A stretch of 64,000 bases of DNA from a virus (IMGVR_UViG_3300001528_000192:1-64000), one strand, 5' to 3'; counted from the stretch's first letter, positions 881 to 44,057 are shown. The notes: a model not told the origin generated them from the sequence alone. Numbers and translations are program-made.

Positions 881-1300
881 TTAATCTCCTATTCTTTTAG
901 AAGCTGTAGTTGCGAGTTTGTCACAGTACTCATTCCATTTATCTCCATTATGTCCTTTTACGTGTTGAAACACAATATTCGGACACAACTCAGACACACG
1001 AGTATATTGTTTATCAAACTCTTCCCACAACTTCACGTTTTTACTTCTTTTCCAACCCTTAGTTGCACATCCTATGCAGTACATACTATCAGACACAATG
1101 GTCAAATTATCAATAGGTTTAGTGATACATTTAAGCCCAGTGATAATTGCACCTAATTCCATCTGATTATTAGTAGTATGTTTGTACATCTTTGAGTACC
1201 TAAGGATTAACTTATCATCCTTTAAAAATACTAAACCAAGTCCTCCTTGGTCTAGCTTAGATGAGTATGCGCCATCAGTTATTAATTTATAACTAGACAT
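881..1300 (-). CDS. rnhA: Ribonuclease HI
   Basis: The ORF-track protein carries TDGAYSSK...GGLGLV, ELGAIITGL and VKGHNGDKWNEYCDKLA, the RNase H catalytic signatures. It ends with a TAA stop. Confidence 0.85.
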   Translation of the reverse strand: MSSYKLITDGAYSSKLDQGGLGLVFLKDDKLILRYSKMYKHTTNNQMELGAIITGLKCITKPIDNLTIVSDSMYCIGCATKGWKRSKNVKLWEEFDKQYTRVSELCPNIVFQHVKGHNGDKWNEYCDKLATTASKRIGD

Positions 1301-1751
1301 GTATAAAACGAGCGTTAAGATTATCCTTCTCTATAGGACATTCTCCATATTTTGACTCTATTAGAATTTTTTGTTCATTTAGCATCTCTTCTAAATCTGG
1401 AAGGTCTTCATCCTCATCCTGTACATATAAAGATTGCCAGTTGAAGCCTCCCATATCTTCTAGTATAATTCCTCTGATTTCTTCCCTAATATGGTCTGCA
1501 AAGTCATAATATCCTATCCTTATTTCTCCTGCCTTTCCTTTAACCTTTACATAAATCTCATTAGGATTCACTCTTGTAAAGCAAACTAACTTATCATTGT
1601 AGAGCACTGGTTTTATCTCTGTACTCGGAACAAACAGCTCTGTTAATACAAGGTCATCAAAGGTTGGTTCAATAGATTTAGGAGTTTTGACTATGTATCT
1701 CTCGAAGGGATAATACTCATTAATCACGTTTATAAATTCCTCGTCTGCCAT
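1293..1751 (-). CDS. Hypothetical protein, standard code, terminates with TAG
   Basis: 152-aa ORF in the standard code. Its stop codon is TAG (plus-strand cta at 1293-1295). Its 3' end overlaps the rnhA start by 8 nt. Confidence 0.6.
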   Translation of the reverse strand: MADEEFINVINEYYPFERYIVKTPKSIEPTFDDLVLTELFVPSTEIKPVLYNDKLVCFTRVNPNEIYVKVKGKAGEIRIGYYDFADHIREEIRGIILEDMGGFNWQSLYVQDEDEDLPDLEEMLNEQKILIESKYGECPIEKDNLNARFIHV

Positions 1752-3603: not shown

Positions 3604-4197
3604 TTACTCAGTTTCTTTTTCATAATAGCATACTAAAGTATAAGGATGTAATATACCCTCTTTTTCAAGTTCATAGAATAATTGCTCAAATACTATTATT
3701 CTCACAAATCCTAAATTGAACTCTGTTTTTGAGGGCTGCTTCCAAGTATATGGACACTCTGCGACATAGCATAATTTACCATTAATAACTCGCATTTTTA
3801 AGTAACAATAGTTTAGTAGAATAGCTGCATTTTTCTCTTTTGAGTTAATTGCATAATCTTTATTGCCATTCCAAGCCATCCTACCAAGCTCATTGTCCTT
3901 AAATCTTTGTCTTATCTTTGGAGACAACCATTTATTGTTATGTATAAACAGGGTATCCTGTTTGGTTAACATCCTAAAATTAGCATACCCAGCATCAGCA
4001 CAGTATAGACTTCCAACGGTATATAAACCTGCATGTAATGTCAATATGCTAGCTTTTTCATATAAACTGATTGGAATATTTTTATCTATTTTGTTAACAG
4101 TTTTATACTGATAGCTAACTAAATAAAAAATTCCATTTGCGATACTAATTATCACTATGATAACTAATATCTTTAATAATCTCTTTAACTTTTTCAT
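3604..4197 (-). CDS. Hypothetical protein with an N-terminal membrane anchor
   Basis: 197-aa ORF. The N-terminus KRLLKILVIIVIISIANGIFYLV is a transmembrane helix. The start ATG overlaps the stop of the upstream recoded gene (ATGA). Confidence 0.6.
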   Translation of the reverse strand: MKKLKRLLKILVIIVIISIANGIFYLVSYQYKTVNKIDKNIPISLYEKASILTLHAGLYTVGSLYCADAGYANFRMLTKQDTLFIHNNKWLSPKIRQRFKDNELGRMAWNGNKDYAINSKEKNAAILLNYCYLKMRVINGKLCYVAECPYTWKQPSKTEFNLGFVRIIVFEQLFYELEKEGILHPYTLVCYYEKETE

Positions 4198-5456
4198 TTT
4201 TTATCTTTATTGTTTCTTTGTCTATTATATTCTCTTGCCCACTTATTTAGTTGCTCAGTGGGAATATTAGTAACGTCAGAGTGCCTTTTAGTGTCAACAC
4301 CCCTCAAGGCTGCAACAGTTTCCATTATCGGCTAAATACCCTTGACTCCAGCTTTTTTAGCATCAATGCCTGCCTTTACTGAAGAATAAAGACTGCTATT
4401 TCCCTCTCCATCTCCTAACACTTGAACTACACCCACCTTTCCATTTGGTTTTGTTCCCCACACATTGTTGAATGTGTAGTTATCTCCACGAGAGTAAAAT
4501 CCATCTTTATCAAATCCAGTTCCGGCGGACTATCCGTAAATGTTGTGATACGGAAGGTTTATTGCATTTTTAAACTAATCAGAAACCCTCTCCCAGAATC
4601 CTCTATCATCCTTATTCTGCCCATGGAATGATGATCCAGAATCCCCGTGTTCCCCACCTAAAGCACTATGTGCGGAATCGGTTATACTTCCATCTCCACC
4701 ATTTGCTAAATTATACAAAGAAGCTGCAACAGCTTGTCTCTCAGTTCCCTCCCCTAGATCAAATATAGTATGACCATGAGGGTTTAAAAGTCCTGCTACA
4801 TAATTCCCTGCAACATTGTGAAAGTTGTTGATACGACGAACAAGAGGTGCTTTCTCTCCACCTGACTTATAAAGCCAATCAATAAAGTCTTGATTCTACT
4901 TTACATCATCAAACGTTGTCTTATCAGAGTTATTTCTCCAGTTATTAAAGGCATTATAGGCTCCCTCTGTAGTCCCTGTGATAGCAGGCAACCCTACAAC
5001 ACCAGCTGCAATAGTATAGCCTAACCTCTTCTTACGAATTTTACTCGCCCCCTGTGAAATGAAAGGTTTCATAGCCTCTTGCCTAGCCTTTAGAAGAGCT
5101 AACTTATTTGCATCTCCTCCAAATTCCATAGCACCACTCTTGTAAACCTTAGTAGCTTTATCAGAATTATTCTTCATCCACTCAAGCTCTGCTTTAGAGG
5201 CAGCACTTCTCATGGCTTTAGCATCCCTAATAGCCTATTTCTTTCCTTCAAGATTTGCATCTCTCATTTTCTAAGTAGGTCTCCAACTACTCTTCTGTTG
5301 CAATATTCTCTATTTTGCTAGTTTATTTAACTGCTTTTCAGCAGCTGCTTCACCTGTGAATATTCTTCTCAACCCATTAGATGCCAACTTAGCTTTATTT
5401 GCAAGTTTACTAAACTAGAGAATTGCGCCTCTCTATGCTTTATTAATTTGTGCCAT
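4194..5456 (-). CDS. TAG-recoded gene, hypothetical protein (about 420 aa with TAG read as Gln)
   Basis: ATG at 5456 to TGA at 4194-4196 is exactly 421 codons, with 8 in-frame TAG. Translation with TAG=Q gives a continuous protein (…AMRSAASKAELEWMKNN…SAHSALGGEHGDSGSS…) containing ORF-track fragment 4896..5213. Confidence 0.5.
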
Positions 5457-5466
5457 TTTTTTTTTA

Positions 5467-6381
5467 TCAATATCCAAACTACATCTTTCTCTAATAAATA
5501 GAGAACAAACTGTTCGGGTCATACTATGATGCCCATGTCTAGGCTACCTTATCAAAGGCATCTTGGGTTTGTTGTCCCCATTTTCCATCAGCATTTATAC
5601 CTAATTTCTACTGAAGCTCTTTGACTGCTTCGGGACTATTATATCCAGCTTTAGCGGCACGGTAGTCAAATACACTGTCATAACCACTGTTATGAGCTTC
5701 CATAGTATCATCAGCTGTACCTACAATTTGCCCAGTTTGCTTATTATAGATATAACCATTACTACCTTGAAGATATTGGTCTGGGGTTAGCCAGTTAGAA
5801 CCATCGTAATAATTGGTATTTCCAAACCTGTCAACACCAAATCCCTGTTGCTAGTCTTCATATTGTCCAGTTTCCTAGTTGTATTCCTGCCAACCCTTAT
5901 TAGGATCGTACATATATTGCTGAGGAGTTTCTTCAGCTACGTTAGTAGACGCAGGGCTTCCAGAAAAAGCACTGTAAGTTCCAAGCCCAAGAGCTCCGAG
6001 AGTTCCTACTGTAGATAGTCGCTTGATTCCTTTGTTTCTAACTTGACGGAAAGCATCTTGAGTAACCTACTCCTTAGTTCTAGCAAGATTCTCTCTCGCC
6101 CCAGCAGTTATATTGGCAGCATCACTAAGCCTCTTTTGGTTCCTTGCACTGCCTGGATTCTTCCATTTTGCGGATCTACCTACAAGAGCCTTTTCTGACT
6201 GTCTAGCTGCCTCTAGTCCCTATCTAGCCTCTGCCAATTCTGGAGAGGCTTGCCTTAATTCAATAACCTTCTTATTTCCGCCACCTAATCTAACCATTAG
6301 TTGCTTAGTTTTATTTGGCAGTAATCGGAGTCTCTAGGTTGCTTTATCAACTCCTTTTCTTAATCCTTCTCCTTTTCCCAT
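5467..6381 (-). CDS. TAG-recoded gene; the protein has a C-terminal peptidoglycan-binding-like domain
   Basis: ATG at 6381 to TGA at 5467-5469 is exactly 305 codons, with about 11 in-frame TAG. The C-terminus reads ...VKELQ[Q]KLGINADGKWGQQTQDAFDKV, which resembles a PG_binding_1 domain. Confidence 0.5.
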
Positions 6382-6385
6382 AATA

Positions 6386-7423
6386 TTAATTAGTTGCTAA
6401 GTCCCACATTGTTCCAATGTTTCCAGTGAAACTATTATCCCTAGAACTTAATATGTTAAAATCATTATAACTATCTCCTAAGCTATTTTTAATGTCTGCC
6501 TCCGAAGCTCCCTGCTTCCTAGCCTGCTTTACCTAATTGAATAAAGGCTATAGTTGCTGTTTAGTATTCTTAACATCCTAGTAACCAGTATAAAGACTGG
6601 ATCCTATTTGAGGCATATCATACATTAGCTTAGCATTTAAAGCCCAATTAGCCGGTCTTTCTACTTTACTAAGTACCTTTACACCTTTCCCTACTGTATT
6701 AGCAGCTCTTGCTAACTTTGTAGCCTATAGACCTACCTTTAAGCCTCGTCCTATATTTCCTATGAAAGGAATGGCAAAGACAGCATTCATCGCTGCTTCT
6801 CCCCAATCTCCCCTTCGAGCTGCATTATATGCATCTCCTGCTGCCATAGCATTTCCAACTCCAGGAATAAAATATCCAGCAGTTCCTGCTAGGTCTGAGA
6901 CTGTAGAATTGGCATGATACAATCCAGTTTTATCTCCTAGCCACTGAATTGCCTTACCTCCAATTGATTCAGCTTCATCAGTAGGCTAGGCACTTTGAGA
7001 CTTATTTGGTTGCCACCTTTTCTATGGTTGAGACTATCTAGCCCTTTTCTCATCAGATATATTCAAATAAGTATCCCTGTTATCAAAGGGATTTCTCTAT
7101 ATATAGTTTCCGTATTGATCTCTTCTGGCTCCAGCTGCTTTAGCATTTTCATCAAGTCTAGAGTTAGCCTCACTCCAACTGGCAGTTCTTCCCTCTTTAG
7201 AAGACCTAACGTCATTAAGCCTCCAACGACCATTCTAGTATATATTTCCATTCCTAGTGTTCATAGAGGTTCTATTTGCATAATCTCTACCATATTTACT
7301 AGCTAAATATCTCCAAGCAGCTCCAGTTATAGGACGCCCTTTCTAAGCAATTTTATTGCCATTCACGTCTCGGTAATATCCATCCTTACCGAGCCACAAT
7401 TTACTCATATCAAAGTTTGCCAT
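6386..7423 (-). CDS. TAG-recoded gene, hypothetical Gly/Ala-rich protein
   Basis: ATG at 7423 (MANFDMSKLWLGKDG) to TAA at 6386-6388 is in frame over 346 codons, with several TAG. It contains ORF-track fragment 6725..6922. An A/T-rich tract lies just upstream of the start. Confidence 0.5.
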
Positions 7424-7728
7424 TGTCTTTCTTTTTTTTTTAATTAGGAACAGGTAGTACCTCCTGATGGATTCAAACCACCGCCAATCTCACTACTATC
7501 TATGCAATATAGAATTTGCTAAATTTCTTCCACTGATATAAGGAGGTATCCCCAGTTAGTTATACTCCAACTGGAAATGAGTCTAGGCTATTTTCACTGG
7601 TTTTATTATAACATTCCATTGTCCCAGCACCTATCGTGACGTTCTTTCTCTTTCTAACCCAAATGATTAATTTCAAGGTAATTTACGATATTTAAACGAG
7701 TCAGTGGGAGATGTTTGTTACCTAATTT

Positions 7729-8730
7729 TTACTTGATAGTAACTGTTGCTACACGACCACTAGTTATGTCAGTAACACCAGTTCCGATACAGTTCTCTAC
7801 AATTACACCATTTCCAGTTAAGAACTTAGAAACAGCTTCCGCACGCTTCTCAGATAACTTCTGATTATATTTAGAAGAACCCTCTGGAGATGCAGAACCA
7901 ATAATGCTTACTTTAGAACCAGTCGGAATCTTTGATAGTTCTGCCATAGCAGTTCCAGTAAGTTCTGAAGAGTTTTGAGCAAAGAACACTACTGTGTTAC
8001 CAATTGTATTAGTAACAACCTCGGTCTTAACGACTTCCTTTACAATTTCTGTAGGTTTCTTTGCCAAATCCTTCTTGAGAGAATTAATTTCATTGTTCAT
8101 TGCAGCAATATCGTATGCCTTAAAACTTCTAGTACCATTAGAAGTCTTGAAGTGATATACCCATCCAACCAAGACACCAAGCTGAGCATAATTCTTGTTG
8201 AACTCTACATGACCAGTCTTGTTCAGATTCCAATATACCGCAGGATTGATTATAACTGAATGAGCCCTCTCCTTACCAAGATTAAAAGACAATATTGCTC
8301 CAGTCTTAGAGGTGATATAATTAGAATGCCCAGTCCAGCTATGAAGCCAGCCAATACCAGTCTCAGTGCTTACTTCAAATTTGCGAGGAGTTCCGTTGTA
8401 TCCACACAATAGGTTAGAGAGATTAATAACTCCATTTAACCCAGTATTGATAGACTTTACTACAGTAGAAGCGCTACCATAGTGATTATCCCCGAAGGAA
8501 GCAAGTCCTTCAACGTTAAACCCGAACACAGGAGTAAGATCCTTCTGCAACTTAATGCCAGCAACTCCATTTATAGGGAATACTGAATTAAAGTCTAAAG
8601 GAGTAGTTGCTCCACCTACAACACTAATAGAAGTGTTATCAAGGATTTTAGATTTCTCATACGCTGTTTGTGCATAGGTAAAACTACACAGAGTAAACAG
8701 CAAACTCATGATGAAAATAAATTTCTTCAT
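7729..8730 (-). CDS. OmpA-family outer-membrane protein (signal peptide, beta-barrel-like N-domain, OmpA C-domain)
   Basis: The signal peptide is MKKFIFIMSLLFTLCSFTYAQ. The C-terminus reads VVFFAQNSSELT...IIGSASPEGSSKYNQKLSEKRAEAV, the OmpA/MotB peptidoglycan-binding signature. Confidence 0.8.
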   Translation of the reverse strand: MKKFIFIMSLLFTLCSFTYAQTAYEKSKILDNTSISVVGGATTPLDFNSVFPINGVAGIKLQKDLTPVFGFNVEGLASFGDNHYGSASTVVKSINTGLNGVINLSNLLCGYNGTPRKFEVSTETGIGWLHSWTGHSNYITSKTGAILSFNLGKERAHSVIINPAVYWNLNKTGHVEFNKNYAQLGVLVGWVYHFKTSNGTRSFKAYDIAAMNNEINSLKKDLAKKPTEIVKEVVKTEVVTNTIGNTVVFFAQNSSELTGTAMAELSKIPTGSKVSIIGSASPEGSSKYNQKLSEKRAEAVSKFLTGNGVIVENCIGTGVTDITSGRVATVTIK

Positions 8731-8850: not shown

Positions 8851-9003
8851 TATCTTCTAACAATAGCAAGAGAATATCCTACATTAACCTCAGTAGAAAT
8901 TGGGCTAGACCAGCTAGCTATTAAATTCAAAAGTCATTTTGTGAATATATGCTATTTTGAATTTTGCTGCAAGTGCTCTTATTATAAAATTATGGCAAAA
9001 ACT

Positions 9004-20308: not shown

Positions 20309-20520
20309 TTAAAACAGAATACATTTTAGAAATTAACCACAATAACTCTACGATAAAGTTGCTGATAGTATTCTTATTCAAACAATATATAAAAAATGGA
20401 CTCAAAACAAAGACGGAATGCAACTAGAAATGTTCAAGATTAAAAGTCTTGTATTATAGTCTGGGCTTGCTGTATGCATTCCTATAACAATCTTCTAAAT
20501 ATACAATATTTAATAGTGGA

Positions 20521-20565
20521 GATGGAGGGATTCGAACCCTCGTCTTACATATTTGCATCAAAACG
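20521..20565 (-). other. tRNA 3'-fragment-like element (T-arm GAGGG TTCGAAT CCCTC plus acceptor-like CATCTCC) with no detectable 5' partner
   Basis: A canonical T-arm is present. No complementary 5' acceptor strand was found within 120 nt. Confidence 0.2.
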
Positions 20566-21015
20566 TACTTACAGCTTAGGTTTTAAAGACTATCCTTGTC
20601 TGTTAGGGCTGACAGGATTGATATTCTGTCAACTTCCACCACTCTGTTCCTAAAGTTTACAGAGAACTTACATGAGGGAAACTTTATACTTAGATTAATA
20701 CTCAACCGCGCTGCTAATATTAGCACTAATAGCTTCCTTACGGATATGATGGGCATTTCTTTATGTTGCCTACCCTTCTACCTTGGAGCACGGACTCTCA
20801 GGCAACCCCTCTAAACTCACACCTTTCTGTTCCTAAGCAAGTGCTGCTCGGCTTATTAGGCAGCAGCCTGATAAGCAGGAGTCATATTGATAACTCTAGC
20901 ATTTATTGTTTCGTTGTCTTTCCAACTGTCTTGCTGTGTTTCTTATCGCCTATGCAATCAAAACCAAAACATCCCCATAATAAGCAGTTTCATGTCATGC
21001 TTGGGACTTTCTCTC

Positions 21016-27548: not shown

Positions 27549-27618
27549 AATTTATTAGTTTTCAAAATAGTCCTGTACGATTTGAGCATTGTTAAGAGGC
27601 TTGACAGGAAATTAGTTA

Positions 27619-29553: not shown

Positions 29554-29859
29554 CTTTAAGCACATCAAAAGATGTGCGTGCCTTAGTATATTCCACCTAA
29601 GGGTTTTAACTCTCTTTAAAGGTGAGAAACCTTGCCAAGTCGGGATTAATCCAAACACACTGTCGTGTCAACTGAAGCACTGTCAAGGGAATCTACCTGC
29701 ACAGTGTCAACACTGTCCTTATCAGTGCTAGCTGAGTTAGTAGAATTTCCGCATGAAGCAAACATTGCTCCAACCATCAGTGCGAATGCAAAAATTAACT
29801 TTTTCATTTTCGTAAAATTTAATTAAACATTTAAGTTATCTGTGCTACATCCAAAATTG

Positions 29860-29930
29860 TTGGGACAGCCGGATTCGAACCAGCAAAAACGGCTCCAAAA
29901 ACCGTTGTGTTACCATTACACCATGCCCCA
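29860..29930 (-). tRNA. tRNA-Gln (anticodon TTG)
   Basis: The sense sequence is TGGGGCA TG GTGTAATGGTAACAC A ACGGT TTTTGGA GCCGT ... GCTGG TTCGAAT CCGGC TGTCCCA A. It has a U1-A72 pair. Confidence 0.65.
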
Positions 29931-34353: not shown

Positions 34354-34647
34354 AGAATCTTACCTTCCTAGCAAGGATTTATTAATGTCTAGGTAAAATT
34401 ACAGTCTTTGACTGCCAGTCAGAATACTTTTCAGGAGAGCTACTATTATTCACTCTATAAGTATACGAAACCATAAACACTTGTGGGAGTAATACGAATT
34501 GAACGTATTTTGGTCCTATTCGATAACACACTAGTTGTTTCTTTCTTTACCTTATCACCTGTCCTACACATTCGCGACTGTATAGGTAACTCCCAAGTTC
34601 ACCTTTTTATTTAATTGAGAGGTGTAACTCAACTCTTTTAGGAATGC

Positions 34648-34950
34648 CTACTTCTTAGCCATCTTTTCAAAAGCCTCTTTGAAAAGTCTATCAACATCTT
34701 CCTTGGTAGGATTCTTCATCTCTTTCACTTTCTTCTCGATTTCTGGAAGTTTAGAGACCATTTTCTTCATTTGCATGTGGATTGTAACATGCCCTGCCAA
34801 TACTGATGCGATAACTGCAGCTTTGATCTCATCAGGAAGTTCCTTAACGTTCTTCTCAAAGCTATCATGATCACAGCTAAATCCCATTGCCACAGTTGAG
34901 ATTGCCTTATCTACAATCTCGAAACTGTACATTTTGTTTCCTTTTTCCAT
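34648..34950 (-). CDS. Hypothetical protein
   Basis: 100-aa ORF with a T-run immediately upstream of the start on the plus strand. Confidence 0.5.
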   Translation of the reverse strand: MEKGNKMYSFEIVDKAISTVAMGFSCDHDSFEKNVKELPDEIKAAVIASVLAGHVTIHMQMKKMVSKLPEIEKKVKEMKNPTKEDVDRLFKEAFEKMAKK

Positions 34951-35333: not shown

Positions 35334-35452
35334 TCTAATTTTAGAAGGTCCGAATCTGAAATAACTAGATCCAGACTCATTCTCTTTAATGAATGAATCT
35401 TTGTCTAGTCTTAAGAGATATTTCTCTATTTTTTTTTTAGCTCCATAACCTT

Positions 35453-35692
35453 CTAAATTACGATAACTACTATCTCAATCTCTAGAACTTTAGGAAGTTG
35501 AACGTAGGATTGATCGATTGCTTTCAAGAGCATTGATGCAGCTTTAGCTGCCATCTTCTCTCCAGACTCTATAGCATCTATTGCCACATTACTTACAAAC
35601 TCTTTAGCCTCTTCTTTAGAAAGAGTGCCGAGTACTGATTCTCCGTCTGTGAAGAACTCAACTCCGTTTGAACATGCAAAAATCTTTTTCAT
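35453..35692 (-). CDS. Hypothetical protein
   Basis: 79-aa ORF. Confidence 0.45.
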   Translation of the reverse strand: MKKIFACSNGVEFFTDGESVLGTLSKEEAKEFVSNVAIDAIESGEKMAAKAASMLLKAIDQSYVQLPKVLEIEIVVIVI

Positions 35693-39746: not shown

Positions 39747-39763
39747 AGTACATATTTAATTAG

Positions 39764-39835
39764 TCGCCCCACTCAGACTCGAACTGAGACGTGCGGTTTT
39801 AGAGACCGCTGTGCTAACCATTACACCATAGAGCA
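39764..39835 (-). tRNA. Amber suppressor tRNA, anticodon CTA (reads UAG); tRNA-Gln-like body
   Basis: The sense sequence is TGCTCTA TG GTGT AATGGTTA GCAC A GCGGT CTCTAAA ACCGC ACGT CTCAG TTCGAGT CTGAG TGGGGCG A. The 5-bp anticodon stem pairs perfectly and the 7-nt loop CU-CUA-AA puts CUA at positions 34-36. The D-arm TGGTGTAATGGT is almost identical to that of tRNA-Gln(TTG) at 29860-29930. Confidence 0.8.
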
Positions 39836-40394: not shown

Positions 40395-41275
40395 TTAAGA
40401 TTTAAACTTACCTCCATTTTTAAGAGTAAATCCCTAACTAGTCCAACTTGGGACAGTCTAAAGGTTGAAATCTAATAGTTTGGGTTTCCTAAAGAAAGTT
40501 AATCCAACGTTACCAGGAGATACATCATCAACTACTATACTTCCATTGGTATATGCTCTATATTGTACGTTAGGATCGTTAACTTTTCTAAAGCCACTCT
40601 TCTACATAGCCTTATCTAACTTATCTACATATTTTGGAAAAGTTTTCTCACTGAGAACTTTCACCTTTTTCTAAATGAAAGTTGGAAATCTTCTAGTCCC
40701 ATCCTTCACATAGCCTACAAACTTTAGAGGGAGAGAGTTTGGAACTGCATTTCTCTTTAACATTTCACCGCTGCCAACCTAAGTTATTTTTCCCACAGTA
40801 GTAGGAGAGTTTCTTATTACAAGGGCTTCAGAACCCTATCCTATTTTATAAGGGGTTAAAGTAGATAACTTACCAACTGTAGCCCGCCTAGTAACAGCCG
40901 GAAGAACACCTTTAAAGGAACTTACAGGTCCTGCAGTTATAAGAGAAGTTCCTATGTTCTTTACATTATCTTTAGCATAATTAAAATTGGACTATATCTT
41001 CTACTAGTCTTCTTCCTTAGAAGGGTCATAATGAGTTTGGCGTCCAAATATTCCATATCCAAAGAAATTGTTATTGTAGAAGTTCTACATATTCTAGTAA
41101 TACTTAGCTTTATCTGCATCATAGATTACTGCTTGATTCTTTCTAGCAGCCTCCTACAATTTTCTCTATTTAATTCTATCTTGCTATTCTTTAGTAAGTT
41201 GGAATGCCATTGGTTGACCTCTAACAACTCTTGTATTATCCTATACTGCAATCCCACCTCTCTAAAACTTAATCA
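40395..41275 (-). CDS. TAG-recoded gene, hypothetical protein (about 293 aa, about 17 in-frame TAG)
   Basis: ATG at 41275 (MIKF[Q]RGGIAV[Q]DNTRVV...) runs to TAA at 40395-40397. The translation is coherent only when TAG is read through. Its start overlaps the stop of the upstream small membrane protein gene. Confidence 0.5.
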
Positions 41276-41490
41276 TGCATTTTACCTTTCCAAATTCCAG
41301 TTACTGAATCTATACCTAATAATAAGCATACTGCATATATAAAAGGTTCTATCATTAGAGGGGCCTGAATAGAAGATATAGTACAATAGACTAATACAAA
41401 GATGATAATAAGGAATCCGATTACCCCACAAACTCTCTTACTACTAATACCAGAGTGTGAGGTAATCATCAGTCTAAGAAAATCCTTCAT
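41269..41490 (-). CDS. Small membrane protein (holin-like, 2-3 transmembrane helices), no TAG
   Basis: 73 aa, reading ...VCGVIGFLIIIFVLVYCTISSIQAPLMIEPFIYAVCLLLGIDSV. Confidence 0.45.
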   Translation of the reverse strand: MKDFLRLMITSHSGISSKRVCGVIGFLIIIFVLVYCTISSIQAPLMIEPFIYAVCLLLGIDSVTGIWKGKMHD

Positions 41491-41522
41491 AAAATTAAAA
41501 GTATAATTATTACCTAGAGTAG

Positions 41523-41714
41523 CTATCCTATAGCTCCACCTATCATAGTAGCTGCTATGTCTAGCCAGTCAAACTTACCTCCATACTGTTTATCTTTAAA
41601 TTCCATTCCAAATGCACATCCTAATACAGCTAGTATAGTAAATACTAACCCAATAGGAATTGCATATAAAAGATGTTTCGGACGATTACTTTCTTTCAAC
41701 CACATATTATGCAA
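41523..41714 (-). CDS. Small membrane protein (holin-like), no TAG
   Basis: The protein reads ...LLYAIPIGLVFTILAVLGCAFGMEF...WLDIAATMIGGAIG, which gives two transmembrane helices. Confidence 0.45.
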   Translation of the reverse strand: MHNMWLKESNRPKHLLYAIPIGLVFTILAVLGCAFGMEFKDKQYGGKFDWLDIAATMIGGAIG

Positions 41715-42819
41715 AATTTAATTTATTTCCGAAGAACCAATTAGCCTCCAATTGTCTTCTCTTTATAAGTCCTTTCTATATCTTACCATTACCTCTTGCT
41801 GTAATACCTGCCCTAATCCACTTATTATAAATAGCTTGAGGATTATTCCAGTTCTGAACAATAAATCTTCCAAACTCTCCATTTGGGCTAGCCCAATTAC
41901 CAGAGGCTGATATAGAAGATAATGCATCTATTTTATCCTAAGTTACATTAGGTAATCCTGCTAGCACCTGTTTCCATTCTTCAGCCTTCTTATTATAGAA
42001 GGCATTAAAGATGTTGTCCCATCTTTCTTTAGAAAACCTAGTACCTGCCTTTATAGGTGGAGCCCCCGGTTTATCAAATTCTCTAGTCATGCCATATGCA
42101 CCAGTAGCAAAAGATTCTCCAAACTATGTATTCACTTTAGCAGTTTGGGATCCCCCTTCCATCCTTTTAATTTGGGAAGCCATCTGCTAAGATATACCAT
42201 TAGCGAATGTACTAATGCCGTTGGTAACCCCTCCCAAGATTCGTCTAATACTTTTGATTTCTAAGTTAGGAAGGGGTCTTTCTACTATTCCTAACTTCTT
42301 TCCAGCAGCATCTATAATATATATCTATCCGCTCTCTATTCTACTTATAAGTCCTATGTGCTATCCACTAGGACTATTCTTACTTCCAAACCAGATTACA
42401 TCTCCAGGCTTAGCCTATTGAAGACTAATTTCCTAACCTATCTTACCCTACTGAGCAGCAGTCCTAGGTAGATTAATTCCTACACTATTAAAGACATACT
42501 TTATAAGACCACTACAATCAAACCCAGAACTTGGACTAGAACCTCCCCAACTATATTTACCTCCTAAGAATTGTCTCGCTTGGTTAATTACCTACTAAGC
42601 CATAGAAGAGCTATTCTCAGATTTAGAAGGAGAATAACTGAAGGTAGGTTCTTGTATATCCTACTAAGGAGTATCTAGGAAACTCCAATCTATGCCGGAA
42701 TCTTCTACGTCCTAAGTAGGCTATTGCATTAATTGTATTTCCTGATAATTCTACTATACATCAGGGGTAATTATGTCTGGAGGAGATACAGATTCAAATG
42801 TTGTAAATAATTCAGCCAT
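41706..42819 (-). CDS. TAG-recoded NlpC/P60-family cell-wall peptidase (endolysin-like)
   Basis: With TAG=Q the protein reads ...QFLGGKYSWGGSSPSSGFDCSGLIKYVFNSVGINLPRTAA[Q][Q]GKIG...PGDVIWFG...[Q]HIGLI, the NlpC/P60 Cys/His core. The two consecutive TAG codons sit where the family has Gln-Gln. The end coordinate is approximate because my manual frame count is off by one somewhere. Confidence 0.55.
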
Positions 42820-43646: not shown

Positions 43647-43814
43647 ATTAGATTTTGTTAAAAGTAACACATACTTTATTTGAGTATTCAAATTTAATAT
43701 TTATATTTGTATAATTGAAATGAATATAACTCATAAGTTAAATAGAAAATTCCACGTATAAATATATTTGTACAAACTCAAGGACTAACAGATTAACTAT
43801 ATAATATCTAACAA
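43647..43814. promoter_or_regulatory. AT-rich divergent intergenic region (probable divergent promoters for the minus-strand lysis cassette and the plus-strand late module)
   Basis: A 168-bp gap of roughly 80% A+T lies between the divergently oriented genes starting at 43646 (minus) and 43815 (plus). Confidence 0.3.
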
Positions 43815-44057
43815 ATGAGTTACAAAACAAACTTAAATTCTAGACTACTTGTTGCTCTTACTTTAACAATAGTAGGAAGTGGTCTGTTAATTGCTGGATT
43901 CATGGTTCCTCCTTTGGGAATAATCGATGGTTCAGTTTTAGTAGCATTCGGAGAGACTAGTACATTTGTCGCTGCGTTGCTTGGAATAGATTACAATTAC
44001 AAATACCAGATGTACAAAAACAAAGTCCTTTCAGGATTCAGTGGAAATGGGAAATGA
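43815..44057 (+). CDS. Small membrane protein
   Basis: 80 aa, reading LLVALTLTIVGSGLLIAGFMVPPLGIIDGSVLVAFG. Confidence 0.45.
   Translation: MSYKTNLNSRLLVALTLTIVGSGLLIAGFMVPPLGIIDGSVLVAFGETSTFVAALLGIDYNYKYQMYKNKVLSGFSGNGK

Follow-up and report, generated by a model that had tools for sequence, protein, structure and literature searches.

Three abutting TAG-recoded genes within a standard-code gene run of a gut phage, a probable late cell-envelope module

The viral sequence IMGVR_UViG_3300001528_000192:1-64000, all 64,000 nucleotides (nt) of which are referred to here as the window, has a GC content of 36% and carries 22 transfer RNA (tRNA) genes, all on the minus strand. On the same strand lie three consecutive genes, here called gA, gB, and gC, which are open over their full length only when TAG is read as a sense codon and which are flanked on both sides by genes of the standard code (Table 1). 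The coordinates proposed for this trio in an earlier reading made from the sequence alone (the sequence-only reading) proved exact to the base. Altogether, 29 TAG, no TAA, and no TGA interrupt the 1069 codons of the three genes; read-through of TGA or TAA was considered as well and rejected, since every internal stop is TAG. Translation of the region with table 11 yields fragments of at most 105 amino acids (aa), and standard gene callers shred the genes, which are thus easily overlooked. At the base composition of the window, a single open reading frame (ORF) of 345 codons would arise by chance with a probability of about 1e-8 (our own estimate, not a tool output), and three abutting ORFs of 304–420 codons without TAA or TGA cannot be attributed to chance.

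The TAG content of the trio matches that of the structural genes and differs from that of its same-strand neighbors. The island has 27.1 TAG per 1000 codons (29/1069), and TAG accounts for 41% of all TAG, CAA, and CAG codons. The genes at 40.4–62.6 kb, including those for terminase and portal, hold 137 TAG in 6759 codons (20.3 per 1000), against nine in 7534 codons (1.2 per 1000) for the 39 other minus-strand genes at 1..40.3 kb (Fisher p = 2e-19 for the island versus these 39 genes). None of 59 genes ends in TAG. The immediate same-strand flanks, an OmpA-like gene of 333 codons upstream and a gene of 197 codons downstream, contain no TAG, in agreement with the sequence-only reading. Its description of the surrounding block as standard-code stands in the sense that the block is TAG-poor, but not in the sense that it is strictly TAG-free, as a few other genes may carry one to three TAGs. 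One or two in-frame TAGs each appear to be present in the minus-strand genes at 1287..1751, 12585..13172, 34555..34950, and 35411..35692. About 40% of the glutamine (Gln) positions in the trio are thus written as TAG, as in the structural genes, while the same-strand neighbors avoid this codon.

Table 1. Features of the window discussed in the text (TM, transmembrane segment; E, expectation value).
Feature	Coordinates	Strand	Details
gA	6386..7423	-	ATG at 7423, TAA at 6388-6386; 345 aa; 10 in-frame TAG
gB	5467..6381	-	ATG at 6381, TGA at 5469-5467; 304 aa; 10 in-frame TAG
gC	4194..5456	-	ATG at 5456, TGA at 4196-4194; 420 aa; 9 in-frame TAG
Downstream flanking gene	3604..4197	-	197 aa; strongly hydrophobic N-terminal membrane anchor (Kyte-Doolittle 2.6); 0 TAG
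tRNA-like gene	7457..7547	-	34 nt upstream of the gA start; 7-bp acceptor stem, T-arm, CUA in anticodon-like loop
Short hairpin CCAGTT...AACTGG	7552..7574	-	Between module 1 and the tRNA-like gene
Structured RNA (module 1)	7584..7725	-	145 nt; starts 4 nt past the OmpA-like stop codon
Upstream flanking gene, OmpA-like outer-membrane protein	7729..8730	-	Signal peptide; 0 TAG; Pfam OmpA E = 1e-9
Amber-suppressor tRNA	39763..39835	-	Anticodon CTA, Gln type; ARAGORN; Rfam tRNA, 55 bits
Two-TM protein	41487..41705	-	72 aa; 2 TAG; adjoins the lysin gene
Lysin	41707..42819	-	17 TAG; PHROG tail-lysin and endolysin families; read as NlpC/P60 plus lysozyme-like domain

The decoder on which the island depends is the canonical tRNA-CTA of the window, the D-arm of which is nearly identical to the D-arm of the phage tRNA-Gln(TTG) at 29859..29930. 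With this tRNA, the terminase identities, and the relatives found, the phage is a large gut phage recoded from TAG to Gln and distantly akin to crAss-like phages. Its terminase shares 44–47% identity with those of two unclassified gut phage metagenome-assembled genomes and 26–29% with Crassvirales terminases, and the relatives are contigs of 113–180 kb from human gut metagenomes. Searches of GenBank phage records gave no match to the structural block (megablast) or to gC (tblastn). The phAss-1 group was considered as a relative and rejected as a different, siphovirus lineage. The OmpA-like gene indicates a Gram-negative host.

Homologs of the trio are numerous (97 for gC, 94 for gB, and 68 for gA), and many are of full length. 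At all loci looked up, the homolog was untranslatable under table 11, and all loci whose DNA was inspected had in-frame TAGs. A scan of IMG/VR with gC peptide patterns gave no match, in part because TAG-encoded Q was among the patterns. The gC of the window is 86% identical to that of the relative L002, with a ratio of nonsynonymous to synonymous substitutions (dN/dS) of 0.125, and at four of the five TAG sites that differ between the two, the partner has CAA or CAG. Across the TAGs, dN/dS ranges from 0.125 to 0.55. These data bear directly on the view that the genes are decaying and their TAGs are true stops, with only short TAG-free ORFs, or nothing at all, being expressed. The short table 11 fragments would agree with such decay. 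However, full-length conservation across dozens of metagenomes, the dN/dS values, the exchange of TAG with CAA or CAG, a TAG density on a par with the terminase and portal genes, and 1069 codons free of TAA and TGA all speak against it, and we consider decay extremely improbable. The pseudogene alternative that accompanied the sequence-only reading is thereby refuted by the full-length conservation with TAGs and the purifying selection, and so is the suggestion that shorter TAG-free ORFs are the conserved units, since it is the full-length forms that are conserved. By the same evidence, recoded genes of this phage are not restricted to one strand or block, as had been proposed. gA, gB, and gC are therefore genuine conserved coding genes of a gut phage that uses TAG for Gln (code 15).

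The order of the genes around the island is also retained in related genomes, a comparison that the sequence-only reading had proposed. In contigs of 113–166 kb, an amidoligase/GATase cluster is followed by Band_7, the OmpA-like gene, gA, gB, and gC and, further on, by RNase H and a helicase. The OmpA-like gene is syntenic in L002, L010, and L011. The start of the downstream flanking gene overlaps the stop codon of gC, and the L002 copy of this gene is 96% identical. The distant relative L041 (148 kb) also has a recoded three-gene island, with 18, four, and one TAG, between TAG-free genes, and the first start codon of this island overlaps the stop of the gene ahead of it, an amidoligase gene in the standard code. 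In the window, a standard-code cluster lies upstream of the island at 10167..17146 (minus strand) and comprises, by size and synteny with L002, Band_7 (602 aa), Amidoligase_2, GATase_6/7, a COOH-NH2 ligase, and Peptidase_C26; in L041, the recoded island directly follows such an amidoligase-type cluster, with overlapping stop and start codons.

Conservation within the island is uneven. The gA and gB of L002 share only 23% and 34% identity with the copies in the window, compared with 86–96% for the flanking genes. The two alleles (8263..9991 in L002 versus 5467..7423 in the window) are very divergent and differ in length, which looks like a cassette-type exchange. In L010 (166 kb), the downstream flanking gene is replaced, at 12154..13403, by a fourth recoded gene (207 aa, five TAG) and a GH25 muramidase gene, the latter standard-code and with a lipoprotein-type signal. 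A group I intron (Rfam, 50.8 bits) was also observed in the amidoligase region of L010 (2800..3249).

The three proteins share a common plan, consisting of a helical N-terminal module of 120–170 residues, a weakly hydrophobic Gly/Ala-rich segment (Kyte-Doolittle ≤1.2 over 19 residues), and an exchangeable C-terminal module. No match for gA or gC was obtained in Pfam, PHROGs, NCBIfam, or a PDB sequence search, the last of which gave only noise. In gA, the N-terminal module (residues 1 to ~140) is conserved and precedes a different C-terminal part in 29 proteins, and the C-terminal part differs between phages; two weakly hydrophobic Gly/Ala-rich segments with the motif AIPFIGN follow at about residues 171–228, and none of the 68 gA homologs has a Pfam family. 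In gB, a helical N-terminal part and a Gly-rich segment (~121–140) lead to a conserved C-terminal domain (135–304) with beta-hairpin repeats, which in 45 proteins follows some other N-terminal part. The sequence-only reading had placed a peptidoglycan-binding-like motif at the very end of gB; the motif is present as a partial PG_binding_1-like match, but it lies at residues 251–277 of 304. This borderline, half-length match (PF01471) is the sole family match of gB in Pfam, PHROGs, and NCBIfam and scores 22.9 bits against a cut-off of 23.0. Only profile positions 32–56 of 57 align, and the full three-helix domain of about 57 residues was not found in gB. The match reaches E < 0.01 in 24 of 34 members of the gB family, and the 93%-identical protein P0098 scores 23.4 bits. 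The AlphaFold model of gB, taken from a 93%-identical proxy, is poor, also over the PG_binding_1-like motif, with a predicted local distance difference test (pLDDT) score of 56. In gC, the N-terminal helical module and Gly/Ala-rich segment (1 to ~175) precede a domain at about 178–417, here called domain X, and in 73 proteins the N-terminal module comes with other C-terminal domains, of at least three kinds. One of these alternative partners, in P0070, is CHAP-like by eye, with the motifs ECATYV and THVGY; Pfam did not confirm this, giving no papain-like match and only a spurious CbiD match for the domain.

A short motif with Q-[RKT]-G-[GA] as its end was noticed by eye at the start of, or within, several TAG-rich proteins, as in MIKFQRGG, MINKYQKGG, and ..KLQTGG, and as ..KAQRGA in gC. 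It is located at the N-terminus of the gene 40395..41276 (at 41276), at the gC N-terminus (5456), at 9001 and 11234 in L041, and in L044. The motif might be a processing or targeting signal.

Domain X was explored with a profile built from an alignment of gC homologs and searched against 1.84 billion representative proteins. A few dozen clusters were found at E < 1e-10, of which about two dozen cover domain X. In these proteins, domain X sits behind LysM, PG_binding_1, SLT plus PG_binding_1, or YkuD, and in L041 it also occurs as a free protein of 269 aa. Its AlphaFold model, from a 95%-identical proxy, is well resolved (pLDDT 85–94), and fold searches gave no match in PDB or BFVD. The neighbors of other domain-X proteins had no PHROG matches and resembled gA and gB only in domain X plus the PG-binding motif. 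We infer that domain X acts on peptidoglycan or binds it and that it belongs to a hitherto undescribed family. The cell-wall role that had been suggested for the island is supported at the level of domains, by PG_binding_1 in the gB relatives, by the domain X fusions, and by the partner of the gC N-terminal module in other phages that looks CHAP-like by eye, though not to Pfam. The island would thus contribute three unannotated families tied to the cell wall, one with a well-modeled domain that lacks a known fold relative.

The combination of constant and exchangeable modules also recalls polymorphic effectors, that is, inter-phage or inter-bacterial toxins or superinfection-exclusion proteins, in which a constant N-terminal module delivers exchangeable toxic C-terminal domains. 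The extensive shuffling of N- and C-terminal modules in all three families, the cassette-like divergence of gA and gB between close relatives, and the envelope-type accessory genes nearby (OmpA-like, Band_7) would suit such a role. However, the pattern of immunity genes was not seen, all identifiable partner domains are cell-wall domains typical of phage lysins, and the TAG usage of the trio is that of virion and lysis genes rather than that of the adjoining accessory genes, which leaves the effector role improbable.

The spacer of 305 nt between the OmpA-like gene and gA holds RNA elements (Table 1). Module 1, a structured RNA, is the sole blastn match of the region to known phages; Lak megaphages, crAss-like phages, and further gut phages share it with about 80% identity. 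The 24-nt core was found in 24 contigs of IMG/VR (52–554 kb), and exact matches to the core were absent from 185,579 prokaryote species genomes. Module 1 always lies beside a tRNA gene, namely Gln-TTG upstream, Met-CAT downstream, or a CUA tRNA-like gene. A four-helix structure pairs 98.3% of cells with five compensatory pairs, compared with 22–55% in slid-partner controls. A small ORF within module 1 was considered and rejected because an indel shifts the frame between phage groups. Module 1 matched no Rfam family, HDV-like ribozyme families included, and is about twice the size of theta ribozymes. The short hairpin that follows shows compensatory changes in relatives (CTAGTT...AACTAG).

The tRNA-like gene next to gA has a non-canonical anticodon-like loop (six or eight nt) and a long variable region in the window and is reported by ARAGORN only at a relaxed threshold, whereas with default settings the program calls tRNA(cta) for the form in L012 and L013, which is 11 nt shorter. 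Against the Rfam tRNA family (RF00005), the copy in the window gave no match at E ≤ 5, and the scores of the gene in relatives were below the gathering score. The drawn structure pairs 99.5% of cells with four compensatory pairs (eight variants), and one of these pairs falls in a helix that connects the D-loop side with the stretch preceding the T-arm, an arrangement also seen in the tRNA-like domain of transfer-messenger RNA (tmRNA). A tmRNA over the intergenic region, called by ARAGORN only at a relaxed threshold, was rejected, as other phages contain the two RNA modules independently of each other. The tRNA-like gene and module 1 are separable, since L002 has the former without the 145-nt element. 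Elsewhere on the minus strand, a full-length phage tmRNA (Rfam RF00023, 65 bits) was found at 20514..20976, and the tRNA-rich region contains a match to the abiF RNA motif at 27571..27608 (RF03085, 50 bits versus a gathering score of 37). The crAss-like phage cr124_1 has an annotated tmRNA near its copy of module 1.

The two upstream RNAs are conserved among unrelated gut phages and may be part of the recoding machinery. A bolder form of this idea is a self-contained recoding cassette, in which module 1 and a CUA tRNA mimic resembling the tRNA-like domain of tmRNA are co-transcribed with the trio, and domain X is a new hydrolase fold. The upstream RNAs would then either provide or control local read-through of UAG, or serve as processing signals for RNase P/Z that free the late mRNA. 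We regard the cassette as unlikely. If it were true, module 1 would represent a new class of RNA linked to tRNA genes among unrelated gut phages of Bacteroidota, several of them TAG-recoded, and domain X a new peptidoglycan hydrolase fold.

In general terms, the island is probably a TAG-gated, late, cell-envelope module. Late expression of the trio is probable and a virion-associated status possible, lateness being read from the TAG density it shares with the terminase and portal genes. The sequence-only reading had proposed a check for a late-promoter-like motif shared with the region at 43647-43814; no such motif was found, the island and the region at 43.6–44.1 kb having no 10-mer or longer sequence in common. 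A Bacteroidetes-type -7 box (TAnnTTTG) is absent upstream of gA, and scans for sigma-70-like promoters and terminators stayed at the background level, with no terminator-like site between the OmpA-like gene and gA. Together with the overlap of the first island gene with a standard-code stop codon in L041, these results suggest that the island is transcribed along with its neighbors, and the L041 overlap points to translational control rather than a separate promoter. The island would accordingly have no promoter of its own and would be transcribed together with the standard-code neighbors. Host release factor 1 would truncate the trio proteins until the phage Gln-type tRNA(CUA) accumulates, and full-length proteins would appear once the suppressor tRNA outcompetes release factor 1, as in the model of Borges et al., so that timing would be set at translation. 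The tRNA-like CUA gene just upstream may add to the read-through. Recoding would in this way mark single genes for late translation within a same-strand standard-code run, with the ribosome rather than a promoter setting the timing.

As to function, the trio proteins would act on the host envelope via their exchangeable C-terminal cell-wall modules. The reading we favor over lysis, though tentatively and at somewhat less than even odds, is that they travel inside the virion and are ejected to get through the peptidoglycan and the membranes, much as the three ejection proteins of T7 or P22 do. Four observations favor ejection. The hydrophobic segments look too weak to serve as anchors inserted by Sec; the window already has a lysin-plus-holin-like cassette at 41.5–42.8 kb, with another two-TM ORF at 43815..44057; a domain-X protein of L044 adjoins a tail-lysozyme-like gene and large TAG-rich proteins (928–1056 aa); and the gA and gB alleles differ sharply in close relatives, allelic replacement being typical of host-contact proteins.

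Alternatively, the trio may be lysis effectors forming a second lysis module of peptidoglycan-binding and peptidoglycan-degrading proteins, which would gain access to the wall via holin lesions or as weakly anchored proteins like those of the signal-anchor-release (SAR) type, and TAG gating would then prevent premature lysis. This is the main rival reading, which we hold somewhat less likely than ejection. Recoded lysis genes, and code-change genes upstream of lysis cassettes, were described by Borges et al. (bioRxiv 10.1101/2021.08.26.457843). In Zeta crAss-like phages, as many as four lysin genes are present, most of them recoded. In L010 and L011, the island is followed by a gene for a GH25 muramidase, and domain X occurs as a free protein in L041 or behind PG_binding_1 or LysM, as in endolysins. 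On the other hand, a lysin with NlpC/P60 and lysozyme-like domains and an adjacent two-TM protein of 72 aa are already encoded at 41.5–42.8 kb, helical N-terminal modules of 120–150 aa with central Gly-rich segments are unlike known endolysins, and the L010 GH25 gene, being standard-code with a lipoprotein signal, is outside the gated set. The trio likewise has no match to a holin, spanin, or endolysin family. The features of SAR endolysins, a weakly hydrophobic Gly/Ala-rich segment at the extreme N-terminus ahead of a known muralytic domain, were not found, as the weak segments lie at residues 120–230 after long helical modules and no known catalytic family matches. Those of holins and spanins were absent too, the proteins being 304–420 aa long with hydrophobicity not exceeding 1.2 on the Kyte-Doolittle scale and having no signal peptide or lipobox.

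The probable canonical lysis cassette of the phage spans 40395..43646 on the minus strand and 43815..44057 on the plus strand. Two more recoded genes lie alongside the lysin and the two-TM protein (Table 1). The plus-strand part is an ORF of 80 aa with two TMs and no TAG, located across a divergent Bacteroidetes-type promoter at 43679..43709.

Several points weigh against a late, ejected, cell-wall-directed module. The trio is called late from its codon usage, and if the island and the upstream tRNA-like gene share a transcript, the timing logic is less simple. Some 36 kb separate the island from the structural block, which is on the other strand. The GH25 gene adjoining the island in L010 and the free domain X of L041, which is of endolysin size (269 aa), both fit a lysis role. 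Neither a catalytic activity nor a fold could be assigned to domain X in sequence and fold searches, the PG_binding_1 match of gB is half-length and at the threshold, and the trio has no sequence or fold homology to a known ejection protein, holin, spanin, or endolysin.

The island can be compared with several known systems. Podovirus ejection proteins comprise gp14, gp15, and gp16 of T7, the last with an SLT domain, and gp7, gp20, and gp16 of P22. Like them, the trio is encoded by three consecutive genes, is mostly helical, has weakly hydrophobic segments, and includes one putative peptidoglycan-acting module, as T7 gp16 does with its SLT domain; domain X is itself fused to SLT in another phage. 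Unlike them, the trio proteins are much smaller and are encoded outside the structural block, and no homology to the T7 or P22 proteins was detected in sequence or fold. With modular endolysins and virion-associated peptidoglycan hydrolases, which combine PG_binding_1 or LysM with a catalytic domain, the trio shares domain shuffling and PG_binding_1-like, LysM, SLT, and YkuD partners, along with a module that is CHAP-like by eye. It differs from modular endolysins in that domain X matches no known catalytic family, gB has half a PG_binding_1 repeat, and the N-termini are long and helical.

The closest parallel in genome organization is offered by the recoded gut phages of the Lak, crAss-like, Jade, Sapphire, and Agate clades, in which dispersed recoded structural and lysis modules were reported (Borges et al., bioRxiv 10.1101/2021.08.26.457843). 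As in those phages, in-frame TAG is found mostly in genes for structure, lysis, and the envelope, the early and replication genes remain compatible with the standard code, and the phage carries its own suppressor tRNA(CUA); in the large-genome clades, recoded modules are likewise spread over the genome. Different from those phages, a structured RNA and a CUA tRNA-like gene of non-canonical form lie directly ahead of the island, and in L041 the recoded island shows translational coupling with a standard-code gene. In Jade phages, the code-change genes adjoin recoded lysis genes (Borges et al., Fig. S6), and tRNA-associated theta ribozymes have been described in recoded gut phages (Kienbeck et al., 2024; PMC10879173). 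The island resembles both cases in what directly precedes its recoded genes, namely a suppressor-type tRNA or tRNA-like gene together with a structured RNA, but no aminoacyl-tRNA synthetase or release-factor gene is present here.

By the features tested, the island lies outside the known holin, spanin, SAR-endolysin, and ejection-protein families and works like a translation-gated late module. Recoded late modules located away from the main structural block are already known from published phages, and the island adds another case. It belongs to a phage lineage absent from the GenBank phage records and comprises three unannotated modular protein families, and the upstream RNAs and domain X are the parts that might prove to be new.

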